From the NCBI RefSeq assembly GCF_051903065.1, contig NZ_CP178439.1: a stretch of 64,000 nucleotides of DNA. The stretch is one strand, 5' to 3'. Positions 19,033 to 54,414 of the stretch are shown one piece after another (the first letter of the stretch is position 1; each line of letters begins with the position of its first letter). The stretch comes from Escherichia coli. Lineage in GTDB: Bacteria > Pseudomonadota > Gammaproteobacteria > Enterobacterales > Enterobacteriaceae. Made by a program: the position numbers and the translations under genes. The notes beneath the pieces are model-generated. The model was not told the DNA's origin. It made no database searches and was given only the letters and a program-made list of their open reading frames with translations.

Positions 19033-19037
19033 ATATT

Positions 19038-19062: not shown

Positions 19063-19093
19063 ATATGATTTATATTTTTAATTTCTTGTTATA

Positions 19094-20001: not shown

Positions 20002-20830
20002 CCCGCTTCCTTAGATTGTTTTTGGCGCTGGTTATAAAAGATAATGATTCACCGGGGTAGAGAATTGTTTCTTTCGTCCAATAACCATAACCACCGAGGA
20101 TATCTTTTCTTTTCTCAATATAAACCGGTTCAGAAAATTCTAAATGTTGATATTTCGGAAGAGATAAGATTTTATATTTTACTTGTCCAACTAAGAGGTA
20201 ATTCTTCTCTTTAGGATTGATGGTTACTGAATTACCAACACTTTGAGGTATGTTAAGTTTTTTTATATTTAGATCAGAATCGTCAGGAACGGACACTTGA
20301 TCATTAGATGTCTTTCCGGGAAGAGTAAACCCTTTATCCTGATCCGGTCCAAAGATGGCAATTACATCTTTGTTGTTTCTTGTGATCGAAACGATAGCCT
20401 GAAGGGGCGTATTAGCAAGGTCATTTATAAACGATATAGTTATACTTGATTTAGGCTCGACCCAAACAATGCTTTTTCCGGATGTGCCTTCGCTTAATGC
20501 AATTTTTTCATTTAGTAAGATTTTATTTTTGGCAATGATATTATACTCAAGTTTCGGTATCACCATAAAAAGTGATTCTTTATTTGAAACATTCATGATT
20601 TCTAAGAAATTGGTTTTGGTCATGCTGGTCTTTAGAACAGGCCTATATTTACCATTTATAAACCACCTTCCGTTTATAAGCTCCGCTTTAGCAGATATAA
20701 GTGAATCACTTTTCTGAGCGGCAGAAGAAAAAGCATCTTTTCTTTGCTCTTTCTCTTGATGTGGTGCAGCTGCTGCGTGAAGATGCAAAAGTAATGTTGA
20801 AATTGAGATAATCTTCCATTTTATCTTCAT
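19994..20830 (-). CDS. Exported protein, unknown function
   Basis: 278 aa with an N-terminal signal peptide; coupled to neighbours. Confidence 0.55.
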   Translation of the reverse strand: MKIKWKIISISTLLLHLHAAAAPHQEKEQRKDAFSSAAQKSDSLISAKAELINGRWFINGKYRPVLKTSMTKTNFLEIMNVSNKESLFMVIPKLEYNIIAKNKILLNEKIALSEGTSGKSIVWVEPKSSITISFINDLANTPLQAIVSITRNNKDVIAIFGPDQDKGFTLPGKTSNDQVSVPDDSDLNIKKLNIPQSVGNSVTINPKEKNYLLVGQVKYKILSLPKYQHLEFSEPVYIEKRKDILGGYGYWTKETILYPGESLSFITSAKNNLRKRDD

Positions 20831-21774: not shown

Positions 21775-22795
21775 AAATTCCTCTACGTATGTTTACATCG
21801 ATGATACGGTATTTCGAGCTATGATTTTTTTACATAAAGGCGTCATTTTGGATTCTAAGCCTAAGGACCTTTGTTACTTACTGGTAAAGGCTCCAGTCCT
21901 GGCTCTCAAACAGTTCATACTTAGGATGCAAAGTAACTTTCTGATTATAATTGGCTCCTTTATAAACATGTTTACTTCATGAATACAGGATATTTAACGG
22001 TAATGTATTTAAAATGGAAGGATGCTGAAATAACATAGAGTTACGTATTTTTTTAATAGTGTTGATGTTGATAATAGGTCACCATTAATGTATAAAGTTA
22101 ATATCTAATATGGTCCTATTAATAAAAGAGAGTTTTTATGGCTGAACTATTAAAATCTGAAAGTCCTGTTTCACAATCATTGCAGGATATCACTGAAGCT
22201 TTAAAAATCGTTGTCGATGATGGAAGTAAAGCTGCAAAACTGGTTTGTCTTAATGAAAGAAACGAATTAGTTCCCTTGCTCACACAAAATAGTTTTGTTC
22301 CAGATTTCCGTGTTCGCCATGAGGGTCTCAATCCTTTTAACTATCTTATTGATGGGCTGGAAAGGTTTTCGCATCACAGCGAATCTAGTAACTCACTGGA
22401 ATCGACTGATGTATCTCACCAATACGATGAAATTAGCCGGTTAAATGTTCACCATGCACTTCATGCTTCTGGTTTAGTTCCTCAGGATGTTCACCTCTTT
22501 GTTACTTTACCTCTTAGCCAGTTCTATACTGCTTTAGGGGAAACGAATATTGAAAATATTCAGAGAAAAAAAGATAACCTGATGAAACCAGTTGAGCGTT
22601 ATCTTGACGGTAAACGCTATTCTTTCAACGTTTTGTCTGTGACTGTTTTCCCTGAATCTTTACCAGCTGTGACCCGGGCAGATGAAATTGAGGATATTGC
22701 TTCATTTGAATCAAGTTTGGTAATTGATCTTGGTGGTACTACTCTTGATGTTGCAAGTATTACTGGGCAATTAGAACAGATTTCGAAAGTAAAAG

Positions 22796-37828: not shown

Positions 37829-39613
37829 ATGGGTAAGCCAACAGAAGAGCAAAGACCTGTTATCGAGAATGCTAGCGCAAACAATATGGTGATAGCAGCG
37901 CCTGGATCAGGCAAATCATTCACCATGATAGAAGCGGTTATATCGATTCTCAAAAAGTATCCATATGCAAGAATCGGGATGGTGACCTTTACTCGCGCTG
38001 CAACAAACGCACTTGCAGCAAAGTTACAAAAGCGATTGAGCAAGAAGGATCTTGACCGGGTGCTGGTGGATACTTTTCACGGACTCGTTAAGAAGCAACT
38101 GGACATGATTCGCTGGCCGGGAAAGATGTTGATAGGGCCAGCACAGAGATCTGTCATTCACCGGGCTTTGAAAGAATCCGGTGTAACGATGAAGTTTGCT
38201 GAAGCTGAATTCGTTATTGATGCTATCGGCAGAGAAATGGATACGGATGTGATTTCAGTTCGGCATAACAGACAACAGATCCATTTATTTAATACCTATC
38301 AGGCGTTATGCCAGAAAGACCATGTGGCGGACCTCAATGCTCTTTCAAAATTTGTTGTCGGTCAAATGCATTCGGGAAAAATGCGCACGTTAGATTTGAC
38401 ACATTTGATAGTAGACGAAGTTCAGGATACTGACTCTATACAATTCTCATGGATAGCATTGCATACAAGAGCTGGAGTCTATACGAGTATAGTTGGAGAC
38501 GATGATCAGGCCATCTACTCCTTCAGATCCTCAGGAGGAGTCAAAATATTTCAACAGTTTGAAAAACACTTCAGACCTAACATATTTTACTTAAACACAT
38601 GCTTTAGGTGTGAACCTGAAATTTTAGAGGTGGCCGGAGCACTGATAGGAAAGAATGTTTACCGTTATGCCAAAGAGTTACGCTCGGCAAAAAAGGGAGG
38701 AGGAAAGGTCACTTTTCGTTCATATGTAGATATGGAGGAACAGATACAGGGTATTTTAAGCCTTATAAATCAGGATCCACATGGATGGGCAATTCTAAGC
38801 CGCAATAATGCTCACTTGGATGAGCTAGAAAGTTTGATCGAACAGCCAGTAATTCGTTACGGAGGTAAATCATTCTGGGATGAAAAAGAAACAAGCGATG
38901 TGTTAAGCCTTATGGCCTTTTTCCGACAATCAAATGATCCTCGCTTAATGAAGAGAGTATTGGCATTGTTTGGAGAACAGGAATCAGTTTTGGATGAAGT
39001 GGCATTGAGTATGAGAGGAAGAAAAGTTACTTTTGGCGACCTTGCCATCCCGGAGGACAGTTCTCTCGAAACAAAAACATTACATTCAAACTTCGTGCGC
39101 TTTACCCAGGAAAGTACTGATAAAGTTGAGATAGCAAAACGTTTCGCCAACCTTACGAAATGGATGGAATCGTCGTCAATCAAGATGAGGAGTAATAAAG
39201 GTACAGCAACCTTAACAAAAATTGCTTTAGACACTTGTAAACAGTGGGCAGAAAAGACTGGTTGGATGAATATGATCAATCGTGCTGCTGCAATGTCATT
39301 AGGCCCTAGGAAGAAGGACGAGGAATACAGCCCAGAGAAAGTAGTCCTATCAACCTTGCATGGTTCAAAGGGTCTTGAGTGGAATAAAGTAATAATAATG
39401 AGTTGTAATGCGGATCAGATACCAAGTAAAAGATCAGTTGGGGAGGAGGCAATAGAAGAAGAAAGACGTTTGCTTTATGTTGGATTTACGCGTGCAGAAA
39501 AGCAACTTTTTGTAATGTGGTATGGTGACCCTTCTTTCTTTTTAAGAGAATGCAGTGAAGAAAAGATAAAAGAAGCAGCTAATATTCGAATTTCTCCAGT
39601 TTATACAGAATAA
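37829..39613 (+). CDS. UvrD/Rep-like superfamily 1 DNA helicase
   Basis: 594 aa; motif I AAPGSGKSFT, motif II LIVDEVQDT, motif VI VGFTRAEKQL. Confidence 0.8.
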   Translation: MGKPTEEQRPVIENASANNMVIAAPGSGKSFTMIEAVISILKKYPYARIGMVTFTRAATNALAAKLQKRLSKKDLDRVLVDTFHGLVKKQLDMIRWPGKMLIGPAQRSVIHRALKESGVTMKFAEAEFVIDAIGREMDTDVISVRHNRQQIHLFNTYQALCQKDHVADLNALSKFVVGQMHSGKMRTLDLTHLIVDEVQDTDSIQFSWIALHTRAGVYTSIVGDDDQAIYSFRSSGGVKIFQQFEKHFRPNIFYLNTCFRCEPEILEVAGALIGKNVYRYAKELRSAKKGGGKVTFRSYVDMEEQIQGILSLINQDPHGWAILSRNNAHLDELESLIEQPVIRYGGKSFWDEKETSDVLSLMAFFRQSNDPRLMKRVLALFGEQESVLDEVALSMRGRKVTFGDLAIPEDSSLETKTLHSNFVRFTQESTDKVEIAKRFANLTKWMESSSIKMRSNKGTATLTKIALDTCKQWAEKTGWMNMINRAAAMSLGPRKKDEEYSPEKVVLSTLHGSKGLEWNKVIIMSCNADQIPSKRSVGEEAIEEERRLLYVGFTRAEKQLFVMWYGDPSFFLRECSEEKIKEAANIRISPVYTE

Positions 39614-39854
39614 TTCGATATGGGCATTTACTTATGCTTAAAGCTATAGTATAAAAACAATGAGCTTAAATATCAGCTCCCAAATTTGAGTAACTTTGCT
39701 TAAAGTTACTTTCGCGTTAAGCGTTGATTTAGCCGTGAAAAGCGGCCAGCTTAAACAAGCTGTAAGACACCACCGGCAAAATGTCACCTTTGTCGCTGGT
39801 GCACTTCCCATGCCTGAAAAAGGCAATCTGAATTTACCAAACCGTAACTAATTT

Positions 39855-39877
39855 AGCTCCTCCTGGAGCTATTTTTG
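39855..39877 (+). terminator. Hairpin plus T-run downstream of the helicase gene
   Basis: AGCTCCtcctGGAGCT followed by ATTTTT. Confidence 0.45.
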
Positions 39878-40007: not shown

Positions 40008-40880
40008 ATGTCTAAAAATAAAGCTCGCAGTAAAGCCCTTCATCAAACCTTTAGTGAAATTATTCCAGAGATGGATAAGGCGCTAAACAAACAGCTCTTA
40101 GAAGTTCTGATGAAATATACAGAACGTGATAATGAACTGATTGTTATTTTGAATGAGGACGGCCCAAATATCATTGAACTTAAGTCTCTTAAGCCTGTGT
40201 CTTTGTTGGCCGAAAAGCTTTCTGCTTATTCAAGCTATTATCATGTGGATGTTGTGGAGCTCGTGGTCAAGAAAATTGATTTCGAAGGAGCTTATAAGCT
40301 TCTTAAAGCTTCCCCAGATGTACCACTTTTTAAAAGCTTAACTGAACTGGATAAATATCTTGTTGAGGAGTTTGAAAAATACGGATTAAATTCATTTCTT
40401 GACGTGGATAATCTGGATTACTCACTTGAAAAAGCCAGTGAACTCAAAAATGAGCAGTTAATAAATTGGGTTTCGGACATCATTTGCAAACGTGAAAAAT
40501 TAACTTTACGTAAGCGTTTTGATGTCGCAGTAAAGGCCCACTACGAAAATGTAGAAAAAATGTATGATACCATTCGTCCGTTAATGAAAAAACTGGGTTT
40601 CCCAGAAGATCTCATGACGCACACCTTTAGTGAGTTAAGCGTTTTTGAAACTAAAGGATGGGACCATGCAATAAAATCGAAAATTGAGACTCTCGCTAAG
40701 CGTGAAACTCAATATTTAGATGATGCGGCTAAAGCAGAGAATCGACGTCTTGTAACAGAGAAGTTGGAGAACTCTTTAGCGATTGCACCAACTAAACCAA
40801 CAAGAAATTGGTTACATATTGCCGGAATTGCCTGTTTGGTAGTCTGCACGTTCATGTATGTAACTAATAAATTTATTTAA
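40008..40880 (+). CDS. Hypothetical protein with C-terminal membrane anchor
   Basis: 290 aa; C-terminal hydrophobic helix WLHIAGIACLVVCTFMYV. Confidence 0.55.
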   Translation: MSKNKARSKALHQTFSEIIPEMDKALNKQLLEVLMKYTERDNELIVILNEDGPNIIELKSLKPVSLLAEKLSAYSSYYHVDVVELVVKKIDFEGAYKLLKASPDVPLFKSLTELDKYLVEEFEKYGLNSFLDVDNLDYSLEKASELKNEQLINWVSDIICKREKLTLRKRFDVAVKAHYENVEKMYDTIRPLMKKLGFPEDLMTHTFSELSVFETKGWDHAIKSKIETLAKRETQYLDDAAKAENRRLVTEKLENSLAIAPTKPTRNWLHIAGIACLVVCTFMYVTNKFI

Positions 40881-42410: not shown

Positions 42411-43469
42411 ATGTCTAATGCCGCTATGAAGTTAAATGAAACATCTTCTGATGCTTATGAAAAATTAGAAGCTCTTCTTTCCCCGGATGTTATAAAGTTA
42501 AAACATTATGTGGATAAAGGTGAGTATCTTTTAGTTCTAGCAAAGGACCTTTTTGGTATTCCAGAAATGGATCCAAAGATGGCTGTGCCTGTTTTCAAAA
42601 CTAAAACCTCGTATCGAGCTCCGCTGAACAAAGACTACATACCAAATCCCCGAATACTTGAACAAGTGGTTAAACTGCTTATCAGTCCGGATATAGATTT
42701 AAGTGTGTGTCTTAAAGGTGAGTCCGGTTCTGGCAAGACTGAAATGGTAATGTACATTAGCCACATGATGAATTGGCCGCTGACAATTAAGCAGATCAAC
42801 AGCAATATTCGAGTTGATGAGCTTGAAGGTGAGCGCAGTCTTAATGGTGGTAATACAGGTTTTGTACACAGCGATTTGGTAACGGGATTTCGTAATGGTC
42901 ACCTCATTCTTCTGGATGAAGTGGACAAAATCGATCCTGATACGGCAGCAAAACTTCACATGCCCATTGAACGTAAGCCCTGGTCACTCAGTGCTAATGG
43001 TGGTGAGGTTATAACTGCTAATGGCTACACGCGATTTATTGGTACTGCAAACACAAACATGAGTGGAGGCGCTCGCCGGTTCGTTTCTTCTCAACGTCAA
43101 GATGCAGCTTTTATAAAGCGGTTCTTGATAGTTGAAATGGAGAAGCCCGACAAAGTTGCTTTAACCAATGTGCTTACTAAACGATATAGCTCTTTGCCTT
43201 TTCAGGTCATTGAGAAGTTCGTAAGAGTAGCGATTGCAGTAAATGACTCTGGTACAGAAGACAGTGTGATGGATATTCGTCAATTAGTAGCTTGGGTTGG
43301 CACGTCGATGACGTTAAAAACCTTTAGTCTTCTTGACACTTTCAAAATAGCTTTTGCTTCTGCTTTACCTTTACATGTGGTCGATCTTGTTCTTCAAGCT
43401 ATAGATCTTTCTCTTGGCGAAGACAAGGATAAATCGCTGGAGTATTTCACAGCAAAAAAGTCGAGTTAG
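42411..43469 (+). CDS. AAA+ ATPase, MoxR/CbbQ/CobS-like (AAA_5 type)
   Basis: 352 aa; Walker A GESGSGKT; Walker B ILLDEVDK; sensor-like TANT. Confidence 0.8.
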   Translation: MSNAAMKLNETSSDAYEKLEALLSPDVIKLKHYVDKGEYLLVLAKDLFGIPEMDPKMAVPVFKTKTSYRAPLNKDYIPNPRILEQVVKLLISPDIDLSVCLKGESGSGKTEMVMYISHMMNWPLTIKQINSNIRVDELEGERSLNGGNTGFVHSDLVTGFRNGHLILLDEVDKIDPDTAAKLHMPIERKPWSLSANGGEVITANGYTRFIGTANTNMSGGARRFVSSQRQDAAFIKRFLIVEMEKPDKVALTNVLTKRYSSLPFQVIEKFVRVAIAVNDSGTEDSVMDIRQLVAWVGTSMTLKTFSLLDTFKIAFASALPLHVVDLVLQAIDLSLGEDKDKSLEYFTAKKSS

Positions 43470-43837
43470 ATGGGATTTGTTATGAAACCTCTGATATTTG
43501 TATCTCAGAGTTATCCCATCTTGAATTTAGTGCGTTTTTAAGTACGGATGGTGCTGCTACCATTGCTATAGCAAAAAACGGAACTAATTTTACTGGACTT
43601 ATGCAACTGAATAACGACTATTCTTTATTGTTTTATCATGATGGTAAAATAAATATGGAAGGTCTGATTAAACAAATGGAATTAAAAGGTTATATGTATC
43701 AGGGAGCAATGGGCAATGATGATGTTGTTGCTGAGTTTCCCGGTATTCTTTTAATTTCACCAGAGTAGCTTTAATATCAACCCTATCGGGAAATCTTTCC
43801 CGTTGGGGAGGGTTTCCCCTTTTTTTTGGAGAAACCC

Positions 43838-44965
43838 ATGACTTTAAATACTTCAATGCTTAACAAAGTATCTGCAAAACAAATCTCTGAGAATTTTGCA
43901 AAATCATATCCAGATTTACTGGAAGGTGCAGTTATAACAAAAATTGAAATAAGTGGCTGTCAAGGATCGCGTCGAACCGATAAAATCGATTTGTCTTATG
44001 ATGGAGATGATATTACGGATCAAAAAAGCGTATCTAAAAGCGAAGTACGCTGGATTGACATAAAAGCCCTTAGCTTCAAAAGTACGATTACCAGCAGAAT
44101 ATCAACTCTTTGCTCACGCTTGTGCATCCGCTATAGCAATATGTGGATTTTACCAGTATCCAGTATGGAAGAGTTTCTGGAAGGGGCCCAAGAGATTGAA
44201 CGAGAGTTTCAGGCAGGTATTCAAAACGTTGTAGACAATTATGAGATGCATATTGAGGCTGAAAAAAATAGAAGCCCAAGAATGTCTTCTTTGATTGATC
44301 AGTTGAAATTAACTAAAGATGATTTCATAAAATCCTTTAGATTTAATATTGCTCACTTTATTCCTTTTACGCCTATTAGCGTTGAAGGTGATGAAACCCA
44401 GGACTACTATCAGGAACAATTGATAACAGATCTGGCAGAAGAAGCAATGAAGGTTTATGAAAAAATTAGCAAAAATAACAATTTGCGCTCAAGTACTATT
44501 GACCGACTGAAGCAAATGCAAAATAAGATCATTAGCTTCATGTTTATACATAAAGAGGCGGCAGTACTTGCAGAAGCTATAAAACACATAATGAATAATT
44601 TACCTAAAGGTGCCATTTCTGAACCTCGCGACGTTGCGGTGTTACAGCAGTGGTTTTATTTCATGAGTGATGCTTCAATGTTAAAGCGTATTATTTCAGG
44701 AGAGCAAAAGGTTACTGACTGGTTGGAATCTATTACCAGATCATTTAATCAAAGCTCACAAACAGAACCGAACGCGCTACAGAACACAGGTATTGAAGCT
44801 ATTTTAGATTCAACAAATGTGTTCCAGGTTGAACCTGTCGTAGAGAACGATATAAATAACAGCACGTTTTCAAACACTGATCCTGTAGCTGAACCTGAGA
44901 AATCAGTTTCGCAACAGGAAGACAATGTTGAAAATGGTTTTGATATCGAGCTCAAAGGCTGGTAA
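43838..44965 (+). CDS. Hypothetical protein between the AAA+ ATPase and the vWA protein
   Basis: About 375 aa; ATG at 43838 after RBS GGAG (track start 43826 is a TTG). Confidence 0.55.
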   Translation: MTLNTSMLNKVSAKQISENFAKSYPDLLEGAVITKIEISGCQGSRRTDKIDLSYDGDDITDQKSVSKSEVRWIDIKALSFKSTITSRISTLCSRLCIRYSNMWILPVSSMEEFLEGAQEIEREFQAGIQNVVDNYEMHIEAEKNRSPRMSSLIDQLKLTKDDFIKSFRFNIAHFIPFTPISVEGDETQDYYQEQLITDLAEEAMKVYEKISKNNNLRSSTIDRLKQMQNKIISFMFIHKEAAVLAEAIKHIMNNLPKGAISEPRDVAVLQQWFYFMSDASMLKRIISGEQKVTDWLESITRSFNQSSQTEPNALQNTGIEAILDSTNVFQVEPVVENDINNSTFSNTDPVAEPEKSVSQQEDNVENGFDIELKGW

Positions 44966-45042
44966 CTGTTTGCTTTATTAAAAACCCCAGATGGGTACTT
45001 CACCATCTGGGTGAGTACCCCTTTTTTATAAAGAGGTATTCT

Positions 45043-47055
45043 ATGAAATTAGATCTTAAATCATCACCGCGCCATATTAAGCGTTTACAGAATATAGCAA
45101 AAGTCATTAGCGGCTTAGGCGATGTAAGAGTTGTAATAGACGACAATACCAAAGGACCGTATTTTGATCCTGTAAATAAAGTTTGTGTTTTACCAAACGG
45201 CGATTATAGCGATGATGACTTTGTCAGTCTGATTGAAGGTTTTACCTGTCATGAAGCTGGTCATGGTCGCTATACCGACAGCGAGGTTTACAGTGACGCC
45301 TTTAATAGTGTTCTCAAGTCATCTGAAGGGTTTACACGCTTCGATGACGGAATGAATGCAGAGTTTGAGAGCCTCGCTGAGAAACGTAAAGCTTATAGCA
45401 GGGCAAAACGTCTTACCGGGCTTATAAATCTGTTCGATGATGTACAGATGGAAGAGAAGGTTGGTAACGATTATCCGGATGCAAAGCGGCGGCTTGCAGC
45501 CACTTACGCACTGATGGTTAAAGCCGGAAGGATGACTCCTGATATATCTTCTCGTCCGGAAAATCCTGTCCTATTTATTGAGTGGTATCTGCTTAACTCA
45601 TTGCGAGTAAAAGTCCTTCAGCAGGCAGGTCACAAAGAAACACTCGATCCGTTTTTTGACTATGCCCAAAAGATACTTTCTCCAGTAATTTCTGATGTTG
45701 AGGAAATTTTTCATGATGCTCTTGGTTGTGAAAATACTCAGGGCTGTGAATCCCTTGCTCGTAAGACCCTGGCTCTTTTAGAGAGACTGCGGGATGAGGC
45801 AAGGGAACAACAGCAGCAGACAGAGCAGGAGGAGCAGGAGGCATATGATGAATCCGAGACCGAGACCGAGACCGATACCGAATCAGAAGATAAATCGCTT
45901 GAGTCGACTGATAGTCGTGAGGATGATTCTGAGGACGATAGTGAAGGTCAGGCAGATACTTCCGATAACTCTGATCTTGCTCAAGAGGGATGTTCTGAGC
46001 CTTCAGAACTTGCTGAAGATAACGAGGGAAATAATGAACCCACCGGTGGCAATCCCACAGGTGATAACATTATTGAAGACGATACTGATGCGATTAACCC
46101 TTCCGAGAGTGAATCAGATGAAGCCAGTTCGACTAACGTTGAAGATGAAAGTAACTTTTCATCGGCTCAATGGGAGATACTGGCAGATTTGTTGGATGCC
46201 TTTCTTGGCAGTGATGAGGATAGCGAAGATTATCACGATGCTTTGGCTAAAGAGATTGAAGGTATTGCATCAAAAGTATCCGATGACGTGAAAGCCGAAT
46301 TCGGTGCTTCTGAATGGGATATCCCTGATCTCCTTATCGATTTGAATGTTTACAATGAGGCTTTGTCTCTGAGTCATTCAATCGGTAGCGACTTGTCTGT
46401 TTTACAGCAGGTTAAAATGCGTGGCCGAAACAAAACTCATGAGCGTGGAATTACCTTCGATGGAAATCGATTAATTCTGTCACCAATGGGAGTTCGTGAT
46501 GTCTTCAGAGCTCAAAGCGAATCTAAAAATAGAGGGCATGTTGGCCTCGTATTAGTTCGTGATATTTCAGCGTCAATGGCTAATGATGAAAGATATATTC
46601 ATGCCATTAAGTCAGATCTTGCTTTATCGATGGCCGCTGAAAGTTTGTCAAAAATGCATGTCTCCAATATAGTCTTTCCCTTCAAGGAAAGTGAATTTGA
46701 GATTATCAAAACGTTTGATCAAAGCGTTGAGGAATCTCTATCGAAATTCACTCTTGGATGTAAGGGTTATTATACCCCTACGGGATCGGCTTTAATGGCA
46801 GCTGTTGATCTGTTACTTGACAGCCAATTCGATAGGAAAATAATTTTTCTTATAACTGATGGTTATCCGAATAAATCGGAATTTACTATCGGCGAAGTTA
46901 TGGAAAAGGCTAAATGTAATGGAATAGAAATCGTTGGTGTTGGTATTAAGACTGATGAAATAATTGGTTTTGAAACGGACACTTTCGTAACAGTTGATGA
47001 TACTTCTTTATTGTCTATTGAAGTCAGTAAGCTAGTTCATCAAATACTTTCTTAA
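45043..47055 (+). CDS. von Willebrand factor A (MIDAS) domain protein with N-terminal HExxH and an acidic linker
   Basis: 670 aa; HEAGH near residue 70; long D/E/S/T-rich linker; C-terminal vWA with D-x-S-x-S (DISAS), Thr (YTPTGS) and Asp (ITDGYP). Confidence 0.8.
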   Translation: MKLDLKSSPRHIKRLQNIAKVISGLGDVRVVIDDNTKGPYFDPVNKVCVLPNGDYSDDDFVSLIEGFTCHEAGHGRYTDSEVYSDAFNSVLKSSEGFTRFDDGMNAEFESLAEKRKAYSRAKRLTGLINLFDDVQMEEKVGNDYPDAKRRLAATYALMVKAGRMTPDISSRPENPVLFIEWYLLNSLRVKVLQQAGHKETLDPFFDYAQKILSPVISDVEEIFHDALGCENTQGCESLARKTLALLERLRDEAREQQQQTEQEEQEAYDESETETETDTESEDKSLESTDSREDDSEDDSEGQADTSDNSDLAQEGCSEPSELAEDNEGNNEPTGGNPTGDNIIEDDTDAINPSESESDEASSTNVEDESNFSSAQWEILADLLDAFLGSDEDSEDYHDALAKEIEGIASKVSDDVKAEFGASEWDIPDLLIDLNVYNEALSLSHSIGSDLSVLQQVKMRGRNKTHERGITFDGNRLILSPMGVRDVFRAQSESKNRGHVGLVLVRDISASMANDERYIHAIKSDLALSMAAESLSKMHVSNIVFPFKESEFEIIKTFDQSVEESLSKFTLGCKGYYTPTGSALMAAVDLLLDSQFDRKIIFLITDGYPNKSEFTIGEVMEKAKCNGIEIVGVGIKTDEIIGFETDTFVTVDDTSLLSIEVSKLVHQILS

Positions 47056-47126
47056 TAAACTCTACCCAATCGGGGCAAAAGGCCCCGGTGGGTCTTTTTG
47101 CTCCATGAAGGAATAAGGAGCAAAAT

Positions 47127-47348
47127 ATGACTCAGATAAAAACTTACCGTGTAGAACATGAAAAAGTCGGTGCGATGCATAAAGTCCGTATTTTCGGACG
47201 TGTTGGTGAAGTTATAAGCAATGATAGCCCTCAGGAAAGAATCTTCCGCGAAGTCACTATAGCGGAGGGTAATAGCCAGCAGGCTGCGTTACTTGTAGAT
47301 AACTACATACAGCGTCTTGAGAATAATGGCTTCACGACTGAAGCATAA
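47127..47348 (+). CDS. Hypothetical small protein
   Basis: 73-aa ORF with RBS AAGGAG upstream, between two hairpins. Confidence 0.45.
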   Translation: MTQIKTYRVEHEKVGAMHKVRIFGRVGEVISNDSPQERIFREVTIAEGNSQQAALLVDNYIQRLENNGFTTEA

Positions 47349-47461
47349 ATGTTGAGGGCCCCCGGGCCCTCTTTCTTAAATTCTGCGTTGTGGGTTTCTC
47401 CCTGTCTTCTGCACCGCAGAAGGCATTGAGAAACTCACAATGCCAGATAAGAGAGATCATC

Positions 47462-48694
47462 ATGACTTATGCATCCCCGGCTCTTCGTCGTAATCCACAG
47501 GAAGTATCTGAACACTTTATTAAACTCGTTCATGCTCGAATTGCTGAAGTGTCTGGCTGGAAGTATATATTCGAAAGAATACCTGCTTTCAAAGACGCTT
47601 GTGCAAAAGCCCCGAGCCAGGTTCCTTGCCCGTTTACTGGCGCAGGGAAATCGAAGTTTCGTTTCCGACAAAAAGACCTTTATACCGGATGTGCGATCCA
47701 TAATGACTTTCCGGTAAATGAGTTTTGCGACGGAATTGATGTTCTGGCGAAATATTATGAATTAAGTAAAACGCAGACTTGCAAAAAGATTCTCTCAGAT
47801 TTTTTCGGGATGGATCTGCATGCTCCGTTAACTGACGCCGACATTGAAAATGAACGACGCTATAAATCAGCAGTTCGTGCCACAGAAACTCTTGACCGAG
47901 AGGAAGTGGCAAAGCGAATGCGAAAACTTGATGTGATGTATCACTATACCGGTGAAATCAAGCCTAATACTCCTGTTGCTTTGTACCTCCGTAATCGTGG
48001 GATCTCCCGCTTACTGAGTCACTTACCAAAGGATTTAGGCTTTAATAACCGGATCTACTATTGGGATAAAGATAAGCAGAAATCGATTATCTATCCGGGA
48101 ATGATTGCGATCTATCGTGACACCCGAGGTCGGCCTCTGACTATTCATAGAACATACGTAGACAAAAATGGTGATAAGGCACCTGTAGAAAATCCAAAGC
48201 TGATGATGAAGCCTCCTGCCGATATGACAGGTGGCTCAATTCAGTTGTTTGACCCTCACTATGATTCAGGTAGTTCGACCTGGACACTGGGAGTGGCTGA
48301 AGGGATCGAGAACGCGCTTTCTGTTGTAGAAGCGACTTCAACACCATGCTGGGCAGCCAGCTCCGCATGGTGCCTTGAAAACGTTACTGTTCCTGATTTT
48401 TTACTGCCTCCGCCGGATGTAAAATCTATAAACTTTTATATCTGGGCGGATAAGGATATTGCTAACTCACAAGGCACTCGTGCCGGTATTGAAGCTGCTC
48501 AGCGACTTCAAAGCCGCATGGTTGAGTTTTTGGCTAAACGATATCCCGCATCAAAGCTGACAATTGAAGTCTTCGAACCAGCACAAGATATTCCTGATGG
48601 GAAAAAGGGTATCGACTGGAACGATGTTCTCCAGTTAACAGGGCAGGATGGATTCCCGATTCACTGGGCTCCTGAATGTCTTAATCAGCTGTAA
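47462..48694 (+). CDS. TOPRIM-domain primase-like protein with N-terminal Cys-rich zinc-ribbon-like region
   Basis: CPFTGAGKSKFRF...GCAIHND Cys cluster; TOPRIM-like EGIENALSV (Glu) and IWADKD (DxD). Confidence 0.55.
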   Translation: MTYASPALRRNPQEVSEHFIKLVHARIAEVSGWKYIFERIPAFKDACAKAPSQVPCPFTGAGKSKFRFRQKDLYTGCAIHNDFPVNEFCDGIDVLAKYYELSKTQTCKKILSDFFGMDLHAPLTDADIENERRYKSAVRATETLDREEVAKRMRKLDVMYHYTGEIKPNTPVALYLRNRGISRLLSHLPKDLGFNNRIYYWDKDKQKSIIYPGMIAIYRDTRGRPLTIHRTYVDKNGDKAPVENPKLMMKPPADMTGGSIQLFDPHYDSGSSTWTLGVAEGIENALSVVEATSTPCWAASSAWCLENVTVPDFLLPPPDVKSINFYIWADKDIANSQGTRAGIEAAQRLQSRMVEFLAKRYPASKLTIEVFEPAQDIPDGKKGIDWNDVLQLTGQDGFPIHWAPECLNQL

Positions 48695-48964
48695 CAACGA
48701 TAACTCCCCCGCTTTTTGCGGGGGGGGTTATCTTATCAATATTATATTTTAAAATTGTATTGATAAGATAACCGCTTTCCTTCGTGATAATTACCTGCCT
48801 TTAAGGTCTTTTCACGGCTGAGATGCTTGCTCAGTTAAATAAATGTGCGGTACTACTGGCTATGGTCGGTTGTATGACATGGTTATTCCATAAACTATTA
48901 AAACCCATAACGGGAGTATTACCGTTATGGTGATGCTCGTCGTTTTACATCGGAGAGCATTTTA

Positions 48965-49486
48965 ATGAATTTTCAAATTAACGAAGTTTTTAATAAATTT
49001 GCTGCTGTTATAAAATCGCGCATCGTCAATGAACCATCGTCATGCTATTTGCTGCATGATAATGAGATAGATATAACGATTTTGAAACATAGCATATTAG
49101 AAAATGACAGAAACCTGTTGTACGTAGTTCGTCCTTCAGGAACGTGTTTGTTGCGTTGTGACAAATATTTCTATCCGAAATATTATCTTCGTTGCCGTGG
49201 AGATTATAAGTCATTCATATATGTCCATCTTGATCTACATAGTGGTGAAGCTAAAGAAATCACATGGGAGCAAGCAGACGATATGCTGTCTAGTCCAGGA
49301 AAACCCCCATTAAAAGGGAATCTTGGACGATTTGAGTATATAAAAGTTGTGGTTGAGGACCTTCGTATTCGAGGTTACGCTGATTATCTTCCTGCGTATA
49401 ATCTTGATGACCTTCGCCGTTTTGCCTTACAGGACGACCGCCCATCCCTTGTCAGATACATTGACAATGTCATGGCAACGGTCTGA
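48965..49486 (+). CDS. Hypothetical protein
   Basis: 173-aa ORF; no recognisable motif. Confidence 0.5.
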   Translation: MNFQINEVFNKFAAVIKSRIVNEPSSCYLLHDNEIDITILKHSILENDRNLLYVVRPSGTCLLRCDKYFYPKYYLRCRGDYKSFIYVHLDLHSGEAKEITWEQADDMLSSPGKPPLKGNLGRFEYIKVVVEDLRIRGYADYLPAYNLDDLRRFALQDDRPSLVRYIDNVMATV

Positions 49487-49564: not shown

Positions 49565-50443
49565 ATGAAGTTAGCTACGGACCTGGTAAAAGCTATTTTG
49601 ATTAGAAATGGCGTTGAACCAGTAAATATAAGCGAATCATCTAAGTTATCTTTGAAACAACCACTGACAGAACTTAAATTCAGTTTATATTTGCGAACTG
49701 AGCATTTATCTCACTTCCTACCCGGTTATGTTTATTCTATAAAAGAATGTCCACTGTCATATGACATCGGGATCGAAATTCAGAAAATCTTCGAAAGTTT
49801 ACATTTGTTAAACGAAGAATTTGAATCCCTCGGTTTTGTTTCTGTATGGATAGAAATGCATCAAAGCATTTTTGAACAAAGTCGGTTTAAGAAAAGTAAC
49901 TTTACTTTTCGGGAGGAAGAGGTCGAGCTTGCTAAAGGGCTTGTTTGTTCTCACAATTCACAAATAAGTAATGCGGCTTATTTCTGGCTTCAGCACTTTG
50001 AGGAGTTTATGATTTATGTTCGTAATAAGCTTATCGACCTCTTTCGAGAGGCCTATGACCTGATCCTTGGAATGCAGCAAGTATTTTTCATTCGGGAAAA
50101 GGAAGAGCTGTTGAAAACTATAAGTTATGGCGATGAGCTGTATGAGGTGAAATTCATGGCGGCTGAGCTTTACTCTATCGAACAGAACTTAAAGTGTTCT
50201 GAATCGATAAGTACAAAATCTCAAGCTTCGGCATATATTAACCGCATCCGTGAGTTTGTGCGTTCGGGGTGGAGGCAGGGCTATATAGTCTGCCATCATA
50301 AGCGAAGTAATCAAATTTCATCATTGTCATTACCGATGTACTTGAAAGATACGTCAGGCCGAAGTGCTCGAAAGCGAGTAAAACGTCTTATATCTTCTAC
50401 AGTTTGTGGTAGAAATAAAGATTTAGGTCTTACAGATTTTTAA
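49565..50443 (+). CDS. Hypothetical protein, possible distant member of the tandem paralogue family
   Basis: 292 aa; N-terminal pattern LVKAILIRNGV resembles the other members; hairpins on both sides. Confidence 0.5.
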   Translation: MKLATDLVKAILIRNGVEPVNISESSKLSLKQPLTELKFSLYLRTEHLSHFLPGYVYSIKECPLSYDIGIEIQKIFESLHLLNEEFESLGFVSVWIEMHQSIFEQSRFKKSNFTFREEEVELAKGLVCSHNSQISNAAYFWLQHFEEFMIYVRNKLIDLFREAYDLILGMQQVFFIREKEELLKTISYGDELYEVKFMAAELYSIEQNLKCSESISTKSQASAYINRIREFVRSGWRQGYIVCHHKRSNQISSLSLPMYLKDTSGRSARKRVKRLISSTVCGRNKDLGLTDF

Positions 50444-50513
50444 TTAAATTATACCCATGTGGGGATCACACCCCATATGGGAGTGATCCCTTTTTTTATT
50501 GAGAGAGGATCAC

Positions 50514-51269
50514 ATGAAAATTATCGAAAAAATCATTAATGCCTTTTTGGTTGTTCAACATAAAAAAATACAGGTTAAAAACATTACATTTTTAGACAAT
50601 GGGCAGGGCATGTTCTCTGGTATGTCTTTTGATGCTGATGTTTCACTGGAGTTTATGTATGAATCAGCAAAAGCATATAGTTCTTGTTTCTGTGATATTC
50701 CCTTTCCAGGTTTTGAAGATGCAAATCTGGAGGAAATTACGAAATTTCAATTAGATGCTCTGAAGCAAAGAAAGAATCATTCTTTCTTTGTTAACCATTT
50801 GAGGTTTCCTATAGTTTTAAGGGAAGGGTGCAAAATCGAAAGAGGAGAAGTCTATTCAATTTCGAATTGCACTTATAATAAAGAAAGATTGCAGTATCTT
50901 TTTTCTCAGGATATTTACGGTAAGTTGTATAATTCCTTAGAGAAAGAATTAAGCTCGTTTTTCTCATTTATCAATGTTGAGGTGCACGAGTTGTTAAAAG
51001 ATGCTGTATGCTTTGCATTAAAAATCCTGAATAAGATATCTTTGGATACACCTGAAAGACTTATTAAAGCTTTTAATTATCGTGACTGGTATTGTAGTTA
51101 CGATGTTGAGCTTTTTAGGAAAGGCTTACCTGGTCATATTCTGGAAGAGCTCATTGCTCCAGATATCTTACTTTCAGACCTTAACGGTTGTAGAAAAATA
51201 CTTAGAAATGCAAAACGATTTCTAAATGGACATACACAAACCAATTGTGTTTATATTAAATATGAATGA
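50514..51269 (+). CDS. Hypothetical protein, possible distant member of the tandem paralogue family
   Basis: About 251 aa; ATG at 50514 after RBS GAGAGG; N-terminal IEKIINAFLVV pattern. Confidence 0.5.
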   Translation: MKIIEKIINAFLVVQHKKIQVKNITFLDNGQGMFSGMSFDADVSLEFMYESAKAYSSCFCDIPFPGFEDANLEEITKFQLDALKQRKNHSFFVNHLRFPIVLREGCKIERGEVYSISNCTYNKERLQYLFSQDIYGKLYNSLEKELSSFFSFINVEVHELLKDAVCFALKILNKISLDTPERLIKAFNYRDWYCSYDVELFRKGLPGHILEELIAPDILLSDLNGCRKILRNAKRFLNGHTQTNCVYIKYE

Positions 51270-51517
51270 TGGTTGGGGCCTGTTGATACCTCACACTCAG
51301 CTAAGTTGATGTCTGACAAAGAAATTAATAACCGAAGTGACTTGAAGAATTTTTCAAAGGTCTTTTTCAAAGAGTGTTTAAGTTCTGGTAAGTCGGAATA
51401 TGAAAACCATCTTAGTGAAAAAGAACATGCGCTTCGCTATAATTATTAATTAAAATTATTTTCTCCCATAGGGATTTCTCCCTATGGGAGAAATCCCTCT
51501 ATTAAGAGGGTATTGAA

Positions 51518-52438
51518 ATGAATGCTATACAAAAGTTAGTTGAATCTATTCTTGTTAAAATGGGTTTTGTTGGCGCTGTAGTGGAAAATATATATTTGGA
51601 TTCAAAACCATTTCGGCATATTCGATTTGTGGCTGATATTCCAGTAATATCTTTTCTACCTCATTTGGTGAAATATCTTAAGGGTGCAGACCATCTTTAC
51701 AGTGGTAACGATGATTTGCATCCTCTTTTCATTTATTTTTCCGAAGCGGCTACATTAAAAGCAGGTCCTGTAAATCTCGCGAACTTTCGTTTTGAAGTTT
51801 CTATAGCTTCAACTCATTTACGACTGGTCTCAGAGCAGCCTGATTTGCTTTTCAAAGGATTTAACCGGGATAATCTAGAATACGTTTATTACCGCTCAGA
51901 TTTGGCCTCTAAGGATCTTATACTAGGCCTTGTTGAACACGGTTCTCCTTTCATAAAACATCTACATGGACTTATACAAAAGCGAATTTTAAACGAGTTC
52001 TCTCTGATTTTTTCTGTTCTTGAAAAGATTTTAGAAAGCGCGAAGCCACAAATTCTTGCTTGCTTCCATAGTGTTGATTATGAAATGAACGTAAAAATAA
52101 TAGCCGAAGCTATACCTGAAACTGTATCTAATCAGATAGTCACATCTGATTATATAGTTAATTCTATATCAGATGCGGACAAGTTTATAAATCATGTTCG
52201 TCGCTATTTAGCAGGCAGGGTAATGAAGAGGCGGATATACGCTGAATTAGATGTTTGTGAAGAAACATCAAGTATTTCACTAGTGAACTTAGGATGCTTT
52301 ACGTCTCCTCTGCTCGTTACGGAATATCAAATGTTTAAGCCACACTCTTCAGGGTTATATCGAAAAGCTATAAACAACTCCTTAAAACAGTTCAAACCAG
52401 AAATGCATGTACCTTCTGAAGAACTCTTTTATAATTAA
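51518..52438 (+). CDS. Hypothetical protein, possible distant member of the tandem paralogue family
   Basis: 306 aa; N-terminal QKLVESILVKMGF pattern; hairpins on both sides. Confidence 0.5.
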   Translation: MNAIQKLVESILVKMGFVGAVVENIYLDSKPFRHIRFVADIPVISFLPHLVKYLKGADHLYSGNDDLHPLFIYFSEAATLKAGPVNLANFRFEVSIASTHLRLVSEQPDLLFKGFNRDNLEYVYYRSDLASKDLILGLVEHGSPFIKHLHGLIQKRILNEFSLIFSVLEKILESAKPQILACFHSVDYEMNVKIIAEAIPETVSNQIVTSDYIVNSISDADKFINHVRRYLAGRVMKRRIYAELDVCEETSSISLVNLGCFTSPLLVTEYQMFKPHSSGLYRKAINNSLKQFKPEMHVPSEELFYN

Positions 52439-53357
52439 TCTAACCCATCCGGGAACCTGCTTCCCGGTGGGAAGCACTTCCTTTTTAGTCATGAGGTAGT
52501 GTAAATGTTTAAAGAATCTGACCACGTGGAATTTGTTAGTGCCTTTCTTTATCAAAATTTAGGCCTTAATGTTTCCGCTGACGATATAACCGTTCAATTA
52601 TCTGATACTTCGTTCGACAAAGTAACCTTTGATTACGATGTAGATATCGATAATTTAAATTGTATGTTGGATCTCTACATATCTGAGCTAATAAAGCACA
52701 ACGCATCTTACTCCGATTCTATTCTTTTGAAACAAAAAATAATTTATTTTCTTGGAGTATTTAAGAATTTCGGATTTTTTACGTTTGATATTCGCGGATA
52801 TAGTAATACTTTAAGCCCAGTTAAAGTTATTGATATTGTTTCAATGATTATTAATGACTGTGAAGAGTTATCTAAAGCTAATTCTTCTACTGATGCTATA
52901 AGAAATCTTTATCTCGATAAAATGAAGGTGGATGGGAAAGTGTTAGTTGCGAAATTTGCACTTAAACAGTTTTTTCATTCCGACTTTGGTGACTTTATCT
53001 CATTTGTCGAGAAAAGAATTACAGATTGTCTTAATGAAACTTTAAGGATTATCAAAGCTGTTGAACATGGCTTTGTACGTGTAGGGCAGCATAAGATTAA
53101 TCGCCGTATTAATGATGACTTAAAGTTATGCATTGATTTCAATACTGATGATTATCCGGCAAATATGCCAGATATATATATTAAGTTTAACGATACATTT
53201 GATGGGAACGGGGCGTTATATTGTGACAATGATGCCCTCATATCCCTCTATACCGATGTTGCTTCAATTATCAATGTGCCGGTGATGATGGAAGTAAGAT
53301 TGATCAATAAAAGAGGGCGTGTTGTCTGTGATTCTTCGCATTCAACTTACGTATCTC

Positions 53358-54414
53358 GGCTTTGTTGAATAAATCGAACTTTTGCTGAGTTGAAGGATCA
53401 GATCACGTATCTTCCCGACAACGCAGACCGTTCCGTGGCAAAGCAAAAGTTCAAAATCACCAACTGGCCCACCTACAATAAAGCCCTCATCAACCGTGGC
53501 TCCATAACTTTCTGGCTGGATGATGAAGCTATTCAGGCCTGGTATGAGTCAGCAACACCTTCTTCACGAGGCAGACCTCAGCGCTATTCTGACCTTGCCA
53601 TCACGACTGTGCTGGTCATTAAACGCGTATTCAGGCTGACCCTGCGCGCTGCGCAGGGCTTTATTGATTCCATTTTTTCTCTGATGAACGTTCCGCTACG
53701 CTGCCCGGATTACAGCTGTGTCAGCAGGCGGGCAAAGTCGGTTAATGTCAGTTTCAAAACGCCCACCCGGGGTGAAATCGCACACCTGGTAATTGATTCC
53801 ACCGGGCTGAAGGTCTTCGGTGAAGGCGAGTGGAAAGTCAAAAAGCATGGCCAGGAACGCCGCCGTATCTGGCGTAAGCTGCATCTCGCCGTTGACAGTA
53901 AAACACATGAAATCATCTGCGCTGACCTGTCGCTGAACAACGTTACGGACTCAGAGGCCTTCCCCGGGTTAATCCGGCAAACCCACCGGAAAATCAGGTC
54001 AGCCGCCGCCGATGGCGCTTACGATACCCGGCTATGTCACGATGAACTGCGGCGTAAGAAAATCAGCGCGCTTATCCCTCCCCGAAAAGGTGCGGGTTAC
54101 TGGCCCGGTGAATATGCAGACCGTAACCGTGCAGTGGCTAATCAGCGAATGACCGGGAGTAATGCGCGGTGGAAATGGACAACAGATTACAACCGTCGCT
54201 CGATAGCGGAAACGGCGATGTACCGGGTAAAACAGCTGTTCGGGGGTTCACTGACACTGCGTGACTACGATGGTCAGGTTGCAGAGGCTATGGCCCTGGT
54301 ACGAGCGCTGAACAAAATGACGAAAGCAGGTATGCCTGAAAGCGTGCGTATTGCCTGAAAACACAACCCGCTACGGGGGAGACTTACCCGAAATCTGATT
54401 TATTCAACAAAGCC
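53358..54414 (+). mobile_element. IS903-like insertion sequence (IS5 family), complete, 1057 bp
   Basis: 18-bp inverted repeats GGCTTTGTTGAATAAATC at 53358 and GATTTATTCAACAAAGCC ending 54414; perfect 9-bp direct repeat ACGTATCTC at 53349-53357 and 54415-54423. Confidence 0.9.
53435..54358 (+). CDS. tnpA: IS903 transposase
   Basis: VAKQKFKITNWPTYNKALINRGSITFWLDDEAIQAWY matches the IS903/IS102 transposase as I remember it; GTG start gives 307 aa. Confidence 0.85.
   Translation: MAKQKFKITNWPTYNKALINRGSITFWLDDEAIQAWYESATPSSRGRPQRYSDLAITTVLVIKRVFRLTLRAAQGFIDSIFSLMNVPLRCPDYSCVSRRAKSVNVSFKTPTRGEIAHLVIDSTGLKVFGEGEWKVKKHGQERRRIWRKLHLAVDSKTHEIICADLSLNNVTDSEAFPGLIRQTHRKIRSAAADGAYDTRLCHDELRRKKISALIPPRKGAGYWPGEYADRNRAVANQRMTGSNARWKWTTDYNRRSIAETAMYRVKQLFGGSLTLRDYDGQVAEAMALVRALNKMTKAGMPESVRIA

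Follow-up and report, generated by a model that had tools for sequence, protein, structure and literature searches.

The window, as we call the whole 64,000-nucleotide stretch of DNA that was analysed, is IncHI2 plasmid backbone with 100% identity to pAPEC-O1-R, and it recurs at an identity of at least 99% in 1,113 plasmid records. Plasmid typing returned IncHI2A, MOBH and MPF_F, congruent with the plasmid location proposed by a first-pass annotation made from the sequence alone. Positions 42411-47055 code for three proteins: a 352-aa AAA_5 (MoxR/CobS-like) ATPase, a 375-aa DUF3150 protein and a 670-aa HEAGH/VWA protein. The three open reading frames called by that annotation are all present and, like every feature described below, they lie on the plus strand. 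They come shortly after the Tra2-region genes trhU/trhN/trhI.

The first gene (42411..43469) encodes an ATPase recognized by Pfam AAA_5 (E 9.2e-28), and its Walker A (GESGSGKT, residues 103-110, nt 42717-42740) and Walker B (LILLDE, residues 165-170, nt 42903-42920) motifs are intact, as annotated before. Among PDB sequences it matched the Midasin AAA region (7e-21), NorQ (2e-9) and CobS (2e-8, over residues 43-300), and among the PHROGs number 249, labelled 'porphyrin biosynthesis' (E 2.5e-30). The CobS and cobaltochelatase models gave weak matches (1.3e-08 and 1.6e-08), the NCBIfam CobS model scoring 34.4 bits against a cut-off of 558.55 and the second model 33.5 against 779.45. Matches to PADLOC models were also weak (E 2e-4 or worse) and confined to short stretches round the nucleotide-binding core.

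Between the ATPase and DUF3150 genes lies a 368-nt spacer (43470..43837). It carries a RefSeq-annotated 55-aa open reading frame (43601-43768), for which the other loci have no relative at this place, and a terminator scan located a terminator-like hairpin followed by T8 at 43788-43818, just 5' of the DUF3150 ribosome-binding site. The DUF3150 gene (PF11348, Pfam E 3.8e-23; 43838..44965) encodes 375 aa when read from the ATG or 379 aa from a TTG at 43826. Its product comprises a folded core of approximately residues 1-305 and an acidic disordered tail (residues 306-375, nt 44753-44962) with the C-terminal end ...ELKGW. We found no structural or sequence relative of DUF3150 pointing to an activity, and tblastn, the PHROGs and an IMG/VR scan yielded no DUF3150 in phages. 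No PADLOC defence model matched either DUF3150 or the VWA protein which, with the weak ATPase matches, agrees with the earlier failure to recognize a named system here.

The third gene (45043-47055) encodes a CobT-like/VWA protein, the adaptor of the unit, in which the HEAGH motif, acidic linker and complete MIDAS described by the first-pass annotation could all be located. Its N-terminal metallopeptidase-like domain (residues 1-260, 45043..45822) carries the HEAGH motif (residues 70-74, nt 45250-45264); downstream of HEAGH lies an N-x3-D-x3-E motif that includes E137, and all 21 homologues compared (21-91% identity) keep H70, E71, H74, N129, D133 and E137 unchanged. Of 12 family members inspected, 11 have the HExxH signature and one has HAxxH, which suggests that the family may do without catalysis at the peptidase-like site. 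Profile searches of PDB sequences with the N-domain gave no match. The linker that follows (residues 261-372, 112 residues, 45823..46158) contains 44 D/E and only 2 K/R (pI 4.05); in the AlphaFold model the pLDDT is below 50 at residues 274-369, between two ordered halves, and the length and sequence of the linker differ from homologue to homologue. The remainder (residues 373-670, 46159..47055) is a helical extension plus a VWA domain (Pfam VWA, E 7.8e-07) whose MIDAS residues D507-x-S509-x-S511, T578 and D606 are invariant in the 21 homologues (DISAS at nt 46561-46575, TDG at nt 46855-46863). In Foldseek, the PDB structures that this half matched best were the NorD VWA domain, as solved with NorQ in the NorQ-NorD complex (4e-9), and the MIDAS domain of MDN1/Rea1. 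Distant family members are recognized by Pfam CobT (PF06213) at up to 9.7e-11, but the 670-aa protein itself is not; CobT_C also matches family members, and the score of the 670-aa protein is far under the CobS/CobT family thresholds. The protein shares its domain plan with cobaltochelatase CobT, namely a peptidase-like N-domain, a disordered linker and a VWA domain, and the pairing of a MoxR-clade ATPase with a metallopeptidase-like and VWA fusion protein holds. This combination of HExxH, acidic linker and VWA is not unusual, being common to CobT (bioRxiv 10.64898/2026.07.21.739949) and to phage 'CobT' proteins (PMC7824862, PMC8651126).

The UvrD-like helicase and TOPRIM neighbours noted earlier were both found. 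Upstream, a UvrD-type helicase named TrhI in RefSeq (37829..39613) matches NCBIfam Rep/UvrD models at ~1e-52, below those models' cut-offs, and TrhI homologues lie upstream of the unit in three other loci (L002, L003 and L010). Downstream there is a small 73-aa gene (47127..47348); genes of 72-120 aa occupy its position in several other loci, same-position small genes being present in L010, L012 and L013, and only L002 contains a sequence relative. It is followed by a primase-like gene (47390..48694, RefSeq start ~47462) whose product matches Pfam DUF7146 (4.3e-19) and Toprim_3 (7.5e-12) and PHROG 510 'DNA primase' (1.7e-27). Homologues of this protein adjoin the unit in L002, L003, L007, L010, L012 and L013.

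We then compared independent loci. In each of the 11, at identities down to ~15-20%, the gene immediately 5' of the CobT-like VWA gene encodes DUF3150, and an AAA_5 ATPase is found upstream wherever a locus has upstream DNA to inspect. The middle gene, which had been taken as unknown and inserted, is a constant member, and no other part of the unit is as specific or as constantly linked as DUF3150. Synteny of the unit extends over IncHI, IncC, IncT and related elements, and the typed plasmids that carry it are MOBH (5/5) and mostly MPF_F (4/5). In 7 loci a Toprim_3 gene is next to the unit, ssb/bet/exo or UvrD-type helicase genes are often near, the unit shares its surroundings with ssb, bet/exo, radC and primase genes, and in L006 the unit adjoins traF/traH/traG. 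In IncC plasmids four genes part the ATPase from DUF3150-VWA; in Rts1 an IS2 interrupts the adaptor gene and the plasmid is still conjugative. The ATPase, DUF3150 and the adaptor make up a real three-gene unit, part of the conserved backbone shared by IncHI2 resistance plasmids and their conjugative relatives.

Homologues of these genes have already been noticed and deleted by others, with weak effects on transfer. Conservation of the cluster in R478 (the IncHI2 prototype), Rts1, SXT and R391 was noted in 2009, together with a much stronger transcription of its pCAR1 operon in the transconjugant host than in the original host (PMC2642839). In SXT the annotated s067 'CobS' ATPase and s070 'cobT?' both lie downstream of ssb-bet-exo, genes of a large operon that starts at s089 and is activated by the transfer activator SetCD (PMC4344509); this gene order suggests that the SetCD-driven transcript runs through s067-s070. 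Deletions of s067, s068 and s070 lowered SXT transfer 10-fold at most (PMC2791158), and Rts1 lacking orf227-234 transferred at 0.21 of the wild type (PMC10838148 supplement). The first-pass annotation had considered that its reading would fall with CobS/CobT-type homology, no conserved linkage to the middle gene and a deletion without phenotype; the homology is there and the deletion phenotype is weak, but the linkage of the middle gene is strongly conserved.

With a probability of about 0.5, we propose that the unit is a CobS/CobT-type (MoxR-VWA) motor-adaptor-effector AAA+ machine, with DUF3150 as its third and dedicated component, whose role in conjugative DNA processing or in establishment is accessory. 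The machine would have been co-opted by MOBH / MPF_F elements (IncHI, IncC and IncT, to which published annotations add IncP-7 and SXT/R391). If it works like CobS6-CobT-CobN, NorQ-NorD-NorB and CbbQ-CbbO-Rubisco, the ATPase would form a hexameric ring into which the adaptor segment preceding the VWA domain inserts, the adaptor would grip a client with its N-domain on one side and its MIDAS face on the other, and ATP hydrolysis would remodel the client or load or unload a metal. Because of its constant linkage, DUF3150 was placed as the counterpart of CobN, and it could be the effector itself or the selector of the client; its conserved acidic tail with an aromatic end is a candidate docking peptide. 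The genomic context and the published mutants point to an accessory, non-essential factor that would be neither a cobalamin enzyme nor a defence system.

Several of the same observations would fit an establishment or anti-defence factor acting in the recipient, a possibility that we hold only tentatively. The mating channel would deliver DUF3150, perhaps along with the primase-like protein, or they would be expressed early. The target of the machine would be a host protein, such as a restriction complex, a nucleoid protein or a replication factor, and its remodelling or cleavage would let the single strand entering the cell be converted and maintained. The co-located ssb, bet/exo, radC and primase genes, the far higher transcription of the pCAR1 operon in the transconjugant and the conserved HExxH site are consistent with it, the DUF3150 tail would then be a candidate docking or export signal, and such a factor would be expected to show weak phenotypes when tested in matings of permissive laboratory E. 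coli. That the unit acts as a chaperone in assembling the conjugative pilus or type IV secretion apparatus seems unlikely. Such a role would have parallels in the MoxR-VWA pair that the Acidianus two-tailed virus requires to grow its tails and in the virion assembly proposed for jumbo-phage MoxR and peptidase-vWA proteins (PMC7824862), and the position after trhU/trhN/trhI, the adjoining traF/traH/traG genes and the mild transfer drop on homologue deletion speak for it. However, we saw no obvious signal peptide in any of the three translations as judged by eye, the recurrent neighbours are DNA enzymes and not pilus proteins, and apparatus assembly factors usually cause strong transfer defects, of which none was seen.

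The reading as an anti-phage or other conflict module of MoxR-VWA type, carried as plasmid cargo, was suggested by the first-pass annotation, and we judge it improbable. MoxR-vWA ternary conflict systems exist (PMC7159879), and the protease-like domain could serve as effector. Against this, the PADLOC results are as given above, no toxic effector domain was found, the unit is fixed and syntenic backbone and does not lie in variable hotspots, and the SXT counterpart follows ssb-bet-exo in an operon under the transfer activator, whose reach we infer from gene order.

To our knowledge, the aerobic CobN route is not used in the E. coli, Salmonella, Klebsiella and Enterobacter hosts, which counts against a cobaltochelatase. 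A genuine CobS/CobT pair that uses host CobN and boosts B12 synthesis, as proposed for viral cobST (PMC8651126) in the usual auxiliary-metabolic-gene reading, is very improbable, for the CobS alignment, the CobT-identical domain plan, the weak model matches and the PHROG labels 'porphyrin biosynthesis' and 'CobT' that favour it are set against scores far under the cut-offs, no gene of CobN size matching any NCBIfam model within the window, DUF3150 as constant partner and primase, SSB, recombinase and helicase genes as constant neighbours.

The proposed CobS/CobT-type machine can be compared with four sets of known systems. Orthologous clusters in related conjugative elements are pCAR1 ORF100-103, SXT s067-s070, Rts1 orf227-234 and the IncC cluster, which share protein families and order (by our HMM searches for Rts1 and IncC, by the papers' annotations for SXT and pCAR1) but only ~15-40% protein identity, with extra genes intervening in SXT (s088 and s069) and IncC (ssb-bet-exo). 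The phage 'CobS/CobT' pairs of Vibrio phage ICP2 (gp42/gp41), cyanophages and jumbo phages also join a MoxR ATPase and a metallopeptidase-vWA protein. The ICP2 adaptor carries HECYH and DSSGS (HExxH and MIDAS), matches the family profile at 1e-17 and has its ATPase adjacent, and the pair lies just upstream of primase, helicase and DNA polymerase genes. These pairs differ in their reversed order (cobT then cobS) and in that the phage searches named above found no DUF3150; B12 supply (PMC8651126) or virion assembly and proteolytic processing (PMC7824862) are proposals only. NorQ-NorD, CbbQ-CbbO, RavA-ViaA and Rea1/MDN1 also combine an AAA_5 ring with a MIDAS-bearing VWA domain, and they include the nearest solved structures to the VWA half and close ATPase sequence matches, but their adaptors have neither the HExxH N-domain nor a DUF3150 partner, and their known clients are NorB, Rubisco and pre-ribosomes. 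CobS-CobT-CobN has three components as well, with an AAA_5-type motor of ~330-350 aa (CobS aligns over most of the ATPase) and an adaptor of ~640-670 aa in which a disordered linker of ~90-110 residues joins a peptidase-like N-domain to a C-terminal extended VWA with MIDAS. Here, in contrast, family HMM scores are far under the cut-offs, the third part is DUF3150, unlike CobN in size and fold, and the genes lie among those for conjugative DNA processing and not among cob genes. In the cryo-EM structure of CobT, an M48C-peptidase-like N-domain is joined by a ~90-residue linker to the VWA domain, and CobN is gripped between both domains (bioRxiv 10.64898/2026.07.21.739949).

The window is IncHI2 plasmid backbone, and the three open reading frames that the first-pass annotation had placed in it were all found at exactly the same positions. 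They encode a 352-aa AAA_5 ATPase (42411-43469; Pfam AAA_5, E = 9.2e-28), a 375-aa DUF3150 protein (43838-44965) and a 670-aa CobT-like VWA protein (45043-47055; Pfam VWA, E = 7.8e-07). Upstream lie trhU, trhN and the gene for TrhI, a UvrD-type helicase, and downstream a 73-aa gene followed by a primase-like gene with DUF7146 and Toprim_3 domains. The 4,645 bp from 42411 to 47055 match E. coli pAPEC-O1-R (IncHI2A, MOBH, MPF_F) with 100% identity, and among 72,556 plasmid records 1,113 carry them with an identity of 99% or more. The order ATPase, DUF3150, VWA in a MOBH/MPF_F element is that of the conserved MOBH cluster of the pCAR1 ORF100-103 type.

Gene context was sampled locus by locus in 11 independent loci, of which six are on metagenomic or genomic contigs (L004/5, L006/7 and L010-L013) and the others are IncHI2, an IncHI-like plasmid of Klebsiella (L002), a MOBH plasmid of Aeromonas (L003), IncC pKAZ3 (L008) and IncT Rts1 (L014). 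The DUF3150 profile found homologues in every related locus, with identity to the window protein down to ~15-20% over the 11 loci, and the CobT-like VWA gene lies directly downstream of DUF3150 in all of them. Wherever the upstream DNA was available, an AAA_5 ATPase gene precedes DUF3150, either adjoining it or standing one variable gene away; in IncC a hypothetical gene and ssb-bet-exo stand between the two. The middle gene, first taken for an unknown insert, is a member of a known Pfam family and the constant partner of the VWA gene. The surroundings are rich in DNA enzymes, with a DUF7146/Toprim_3 gene no more than two genes from the unit in seven loci and UvrD-type helicase or SSB genes recurring upstream. 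All typed plasmids carrying the unit are MOBH, and among the plasmids sampled it is restricted to MOBH-type conjugative elements. The first-pass annotation had proposed to look for the three-gene linkage across plasmids and phages; it is conserved across plasmids, whereas no DUF3150 was found in phages by tblastn, an IMG/VR pattern scan or PHROG. In Vibrio phage ICP2 (L009, 5969-8842) the genes for primase, helicase and DNA polymerase come just after a cobT-cobS pair, an arrangement that repeats the association of the plasmid units with DNA replication genes. Two hypothetical proteins flanking the module, of 290 aa (40008-40880) and 173 aa (48965-49486), have one domain in common (jackhmmer, 7e-44), and their kin occur near the module in L002, L010, L012 and the IncC plasmid.

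Within the unit, the spacer between the ATPase and DUF3150 genes is unusually long (368 nt, 43470-43837) and holds a 55-aa RefSeq ORF (43601-43768) inside a 98-codon open frame without an earlier start codon. Other elements carry extra genes at this place; these are unrelated to the spacer ORF, and a kinship with it was rejected. Terminator-like GC-rich hairpins occupy nearly all the intergenic spacers of the co-directional row between 37600 and 49600, where 22 were counted, compared with 8.1 ± 3.0 in shuffled sequence (for example at 39854-39871, 43788-43818, 44986-45011, 47069-47089, 47354-47371 and 48704-48726). They may act as attenuators, stabilise mRNA or represent copies of an intergenic repeat.

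Further downstream, four co-directional hypothetical genes of ~256-306 aa stand in a row (49565-53368), of which at least two are weak paralogues (50499-51269 and 51518-52438; E = 2e-7). The match to pAPEC-O1-R ends at ~53370, and a 322-aa ORF at 53390-54358 is, as judged by eye from its translation, a putative transposase of the IS5/IS903 type; the ORF preceding it has 287 aa in the window vs 312 aa in pAPEC-O1-R.

The ATPase has intact Walker A (GESGSGKT) and Walker B (LILLDE) motifs, as had been read from the sequence at the outset. An AAA_5 protein with both motifs, encoded together with a MIDAS-bearing VWA protein, has the make-up of a MoxR-clade AAA+/VWA motor-adaptor pair. Residues 43-300 of the ATPase align with CobS (E = 2e-8) and align better with the AAA core of Midasin (7e-21). 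The least tenable reading of the pair, that of a B12 enzyme, draws on this likeness to CobS and CobT and was rejected on the HMM cut-offs, the lack of a CobN in the window and the gene context. The ATPase scored 34.4 bits (E = 1.3e-08) on the CobS equivalog TIGR01650, for which the cut-off is 558.55 bits, and the VWA part alone of the 670-aa protein gave 33.5 bits on TIGR02442 (putative cobaltochelatase), for which it is 779.45 bits. Among the six ORFs of the window that reach 500 aa, NCBIfam models identified no CobN-like gene, and the sole ORF of CobN size, with 1434 aa, matches no NCBIfam model. The two proteins would therefore work in the manner of CobS and CobT and are not cobaltochelatase subunits. 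The 1434-aa ORF (25749-30053) sits in the Tra2 region and may be the large Ig-like protein required for IncHI conjugation. Pfam CobT (PF06213) has no match on the IncHI2 670-aa protein, and it matches two of 21 aligned distant homologues (9.7e-11) as well as further relatives; judged by sequence, the 670-aa protein shares a superfamily with CobT and belongs to a different family.

All three features first noted in the 670-aa protein are present: the HEAGH motif (residues 70-74), a very acidic linker (44 acidic and 2 basic among 112 residues) and a VWA domain with a complete MIDAS (D507-x-S509-x-S511, T578, D606). The catalytic-type residues H70, E71, H74, N129, D133 and E137 and all MIDAS residues are invariant in 21 homologues of 21-91% identity, and HExxH is kept in 11 of the 12 members of a wider family set that includes IncC, Rts1 and Vibrio phage ICP2. 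In the exception (L013, 6345-8210) HAAFH takes its place, so that the catalytic glutamate is lost and both histidines are kept. The invariant H70, E71, H74 and E137 may mark a gluzincin-like zinc metallopeptidase, with E137 as a candidate third metal ligand. An AlphaFold2 model (pLDDT 75) divides the protein into an ordered N-domain (8-273), a disordered stretch (274-369), a helical extension (374-456) and the VWA domain (500-669). A peptidase-like N-domain, a disordered linker and an extended VWA with MIDAS are the architecture of a CobT-type adaptor. A 2026 cryo-EM study found in true CobT an M48C-peptidase-like N-domain, a ~90-residue disordered linker and an extended VWA, with a 'shaft' segment that goes into the CobS ring and two CobT domains that hold CobN between them (bioRxiv 10.64898/2026.07.21.739949). 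The putative M48C likeness of the plasmid N-domain draws on that study and on the Pfam CobT matches in distant relatives; no peptidase family was matched in Pfam or among PDB sequences, and no sequence link from the N-domain to a solved CobT_N or to any peptidase was found. The Foldseek search used the full-length model and VWA matches dominated it, the solved structures closest to the C-terminal half being NorD (NorQ-NorD complex, E = 4e-9) and the MIDAS domain of MDN1/Rea1. In the IncT prototype Rts1 (19030-22192) the CobT-like gene is interrupted by IS2, with HExxH on the N-terminal fragment and the VWA domain on the other, and Rts1 is conjugative despite this.

The third protein matches DUF3150 (PF11348; E = 3.8e-23) over model positions 1-241 of 257. 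The family is small: among 1.84 billion representative proteins its profile found 267 at E ≤ 0.001. The structure of the plasmid protein was modelled confidently (pLDDT 85), and Pfam and structure searches gave no match outside the family, AFDB50 returning DUF3150 proteins alone. Among the AFDB50 matches several UniProt entries are named 'Cobalamine biosynthesis protein', apparently owing solely to the neighbouring cobS/cobT-like genes. A feature shared by the family is a disordered, acidic tail that closes with an aromatic residue: of 130 representatives, 107 have F, W or Y in the last position against a background of 6.9% aromatic residues (binomial p = 2e-100), often as [FW]-G-x-[FW], and the net charge of the 25 residues before the end averages -4.4. 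In SSB and in the replisome proteins of phage T7, aromatic-ended acidic tails act as docking peptides, and by this likeness the DUF3150 tail may be a docking peptide, which we regard as a lead only.

The first-pass annotation had also raised the possibility of a conflict module. Its ground was the pairing of a MoxR-type ATPase with a VWA protein, and no test that we ran identified a defence system. PADLOC-DB v2 gave no match for the DUF3150 or VWA proteins, and the matches of the ATPase were weak and limited to short stretches round the nucleotide-binding core (best E = 2.2e-04); a reading as a named anti-phage defence system was rejected for want of PADLOC support. The MoxR-vWA-VMAP ternary conflict systems (PMC7159879) have as third protein one of VMAP type with effector domains, and in our searches DUF3150 matched nothing beyond its own family.

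Homologues of the unit have been noticed and deleted before. Miyakoshi et al. 2009 (PMC2642839) reported that R478 (the IncHI2 prototype), Rts1, SXT and R391 share ORF100-103 of pCAR1, with a MoxR-like ATPase as ORF101 and a VWA protein as ORF103, and that transcription of the ORF100-109 operon is far stronger in a transconjugant host than in the original one. In SXT the revised order after exo is s067 ('CobS', the ATPase), s088, s068, s069, s070 ('cobT?'), radC, s092 and s072 ('primase?') (PMC10838148 supplement). The ssb-bet-exo genes of SXT are part of a large operon with its start at s089, which is under the activating control of SetCD, the master regulator of transfer (PMC4344509); from the gene order, we infer that this transcript runs on through s067-s070. 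Deletion of s067, s068 or s070 lowered SXT transfer by up to 10-fold (Wozniak et al. 2009, PMC2791158), and Rts1 without orf227-234 (166400-172722), a segment that spans the ATPase, DUF3150 and the adaptor gene already split by IS2, transferred at 0.21 of wild type. We also considered SXT s063, whose deletion causes a 100-fold transfer defect, and rejected it as the ATPase homologue, which is s067; neither s063 nor its Rts1 homologue has a recognised domain. Our literature search found no paper that says what the plasmid unit or DUF3150 does, and none on the mechanism of CobST-like pairs in plasmids or phages. The sequence is the annotated backbone of a very common plasmid type, with cluster conservation published in 2009 and homologues already deleted, and ours is a correct description of a previously noticed cluster, not of a new system; seen in the light of the CobT plan, the sequence itself offers no surprise.

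Taken with the gene context, the deletion mutants are consistent with an accessory role in the processing or establishment of conjugative DNA, to which we give no more than even odds. An assembly chaperone for the transfer apparatus is one alternative; for the MoxR and metallopeptidase-vWA pairs of jumbo phages a role in virion assembly has been proposed (Iyer et al. 2021, PMC7824862). Another is a recipient-side establishment or anti-defence factor, beside which stands the strong transcription of the pCAR1 operon in the transconjugant host. A more specific form of the accessory role, which we consider rather unlikely, is that DUF3150 and the CobS/CobT-like pair form a protein-remodelling (perhaps proteolytic) machine dedicated to conjugative DNA metabolism and common to all MOBH resistance plasmids and ICEs. 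In it DUF3150 would dock through its acidic, aromatic-ended tail on replisome or relaxosome proteins, for example the neighbouring primase-like protein, or be exported with them, and the machine would promote establishment of the incoming strand in hostile or distant recipients. Such a role would explain why the effects are of merely ~5- to 10-fold in permissive laboratory matings.

IncHI2, IncHI1, IncC and SXT/R391 elements are major vehicles for resistance to multiple drugs, to colistin and to carbapenems, and all keep this predicted ATP-driven machine, yet its known phenotypes are weak. Its client, once known, would reveal limits on plasmid establishment in natural recipients and give a first role to DUF3150, and likewise to the widespread phage 'CobS/CobT' genes that are labelled as vitamin B12 genes without evidence.

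With high confidence we assign the architecture to a variant of the MoxR-VWA/CobST motor-adaptor plan in which a family-specific third protein replaces CobN. By analogy with CobSTN, NorQD-NorB and CbbQO-Rubisco, the motor would be a hexameric AAA_5 ring, a single adaptor would be anchored by the stretch just ahead of its VWA domain, and the client would be clamped with the peptidase-like domain of the adaptor on one side and its MIDAS face on the other. The gene linkage suggests that DUF3150 may take the position of CobN, as effector or client selector. NorD and the MIDAS domain of MDN1/Rea1 are likewise VWA domains that work with AAA_5 rings.
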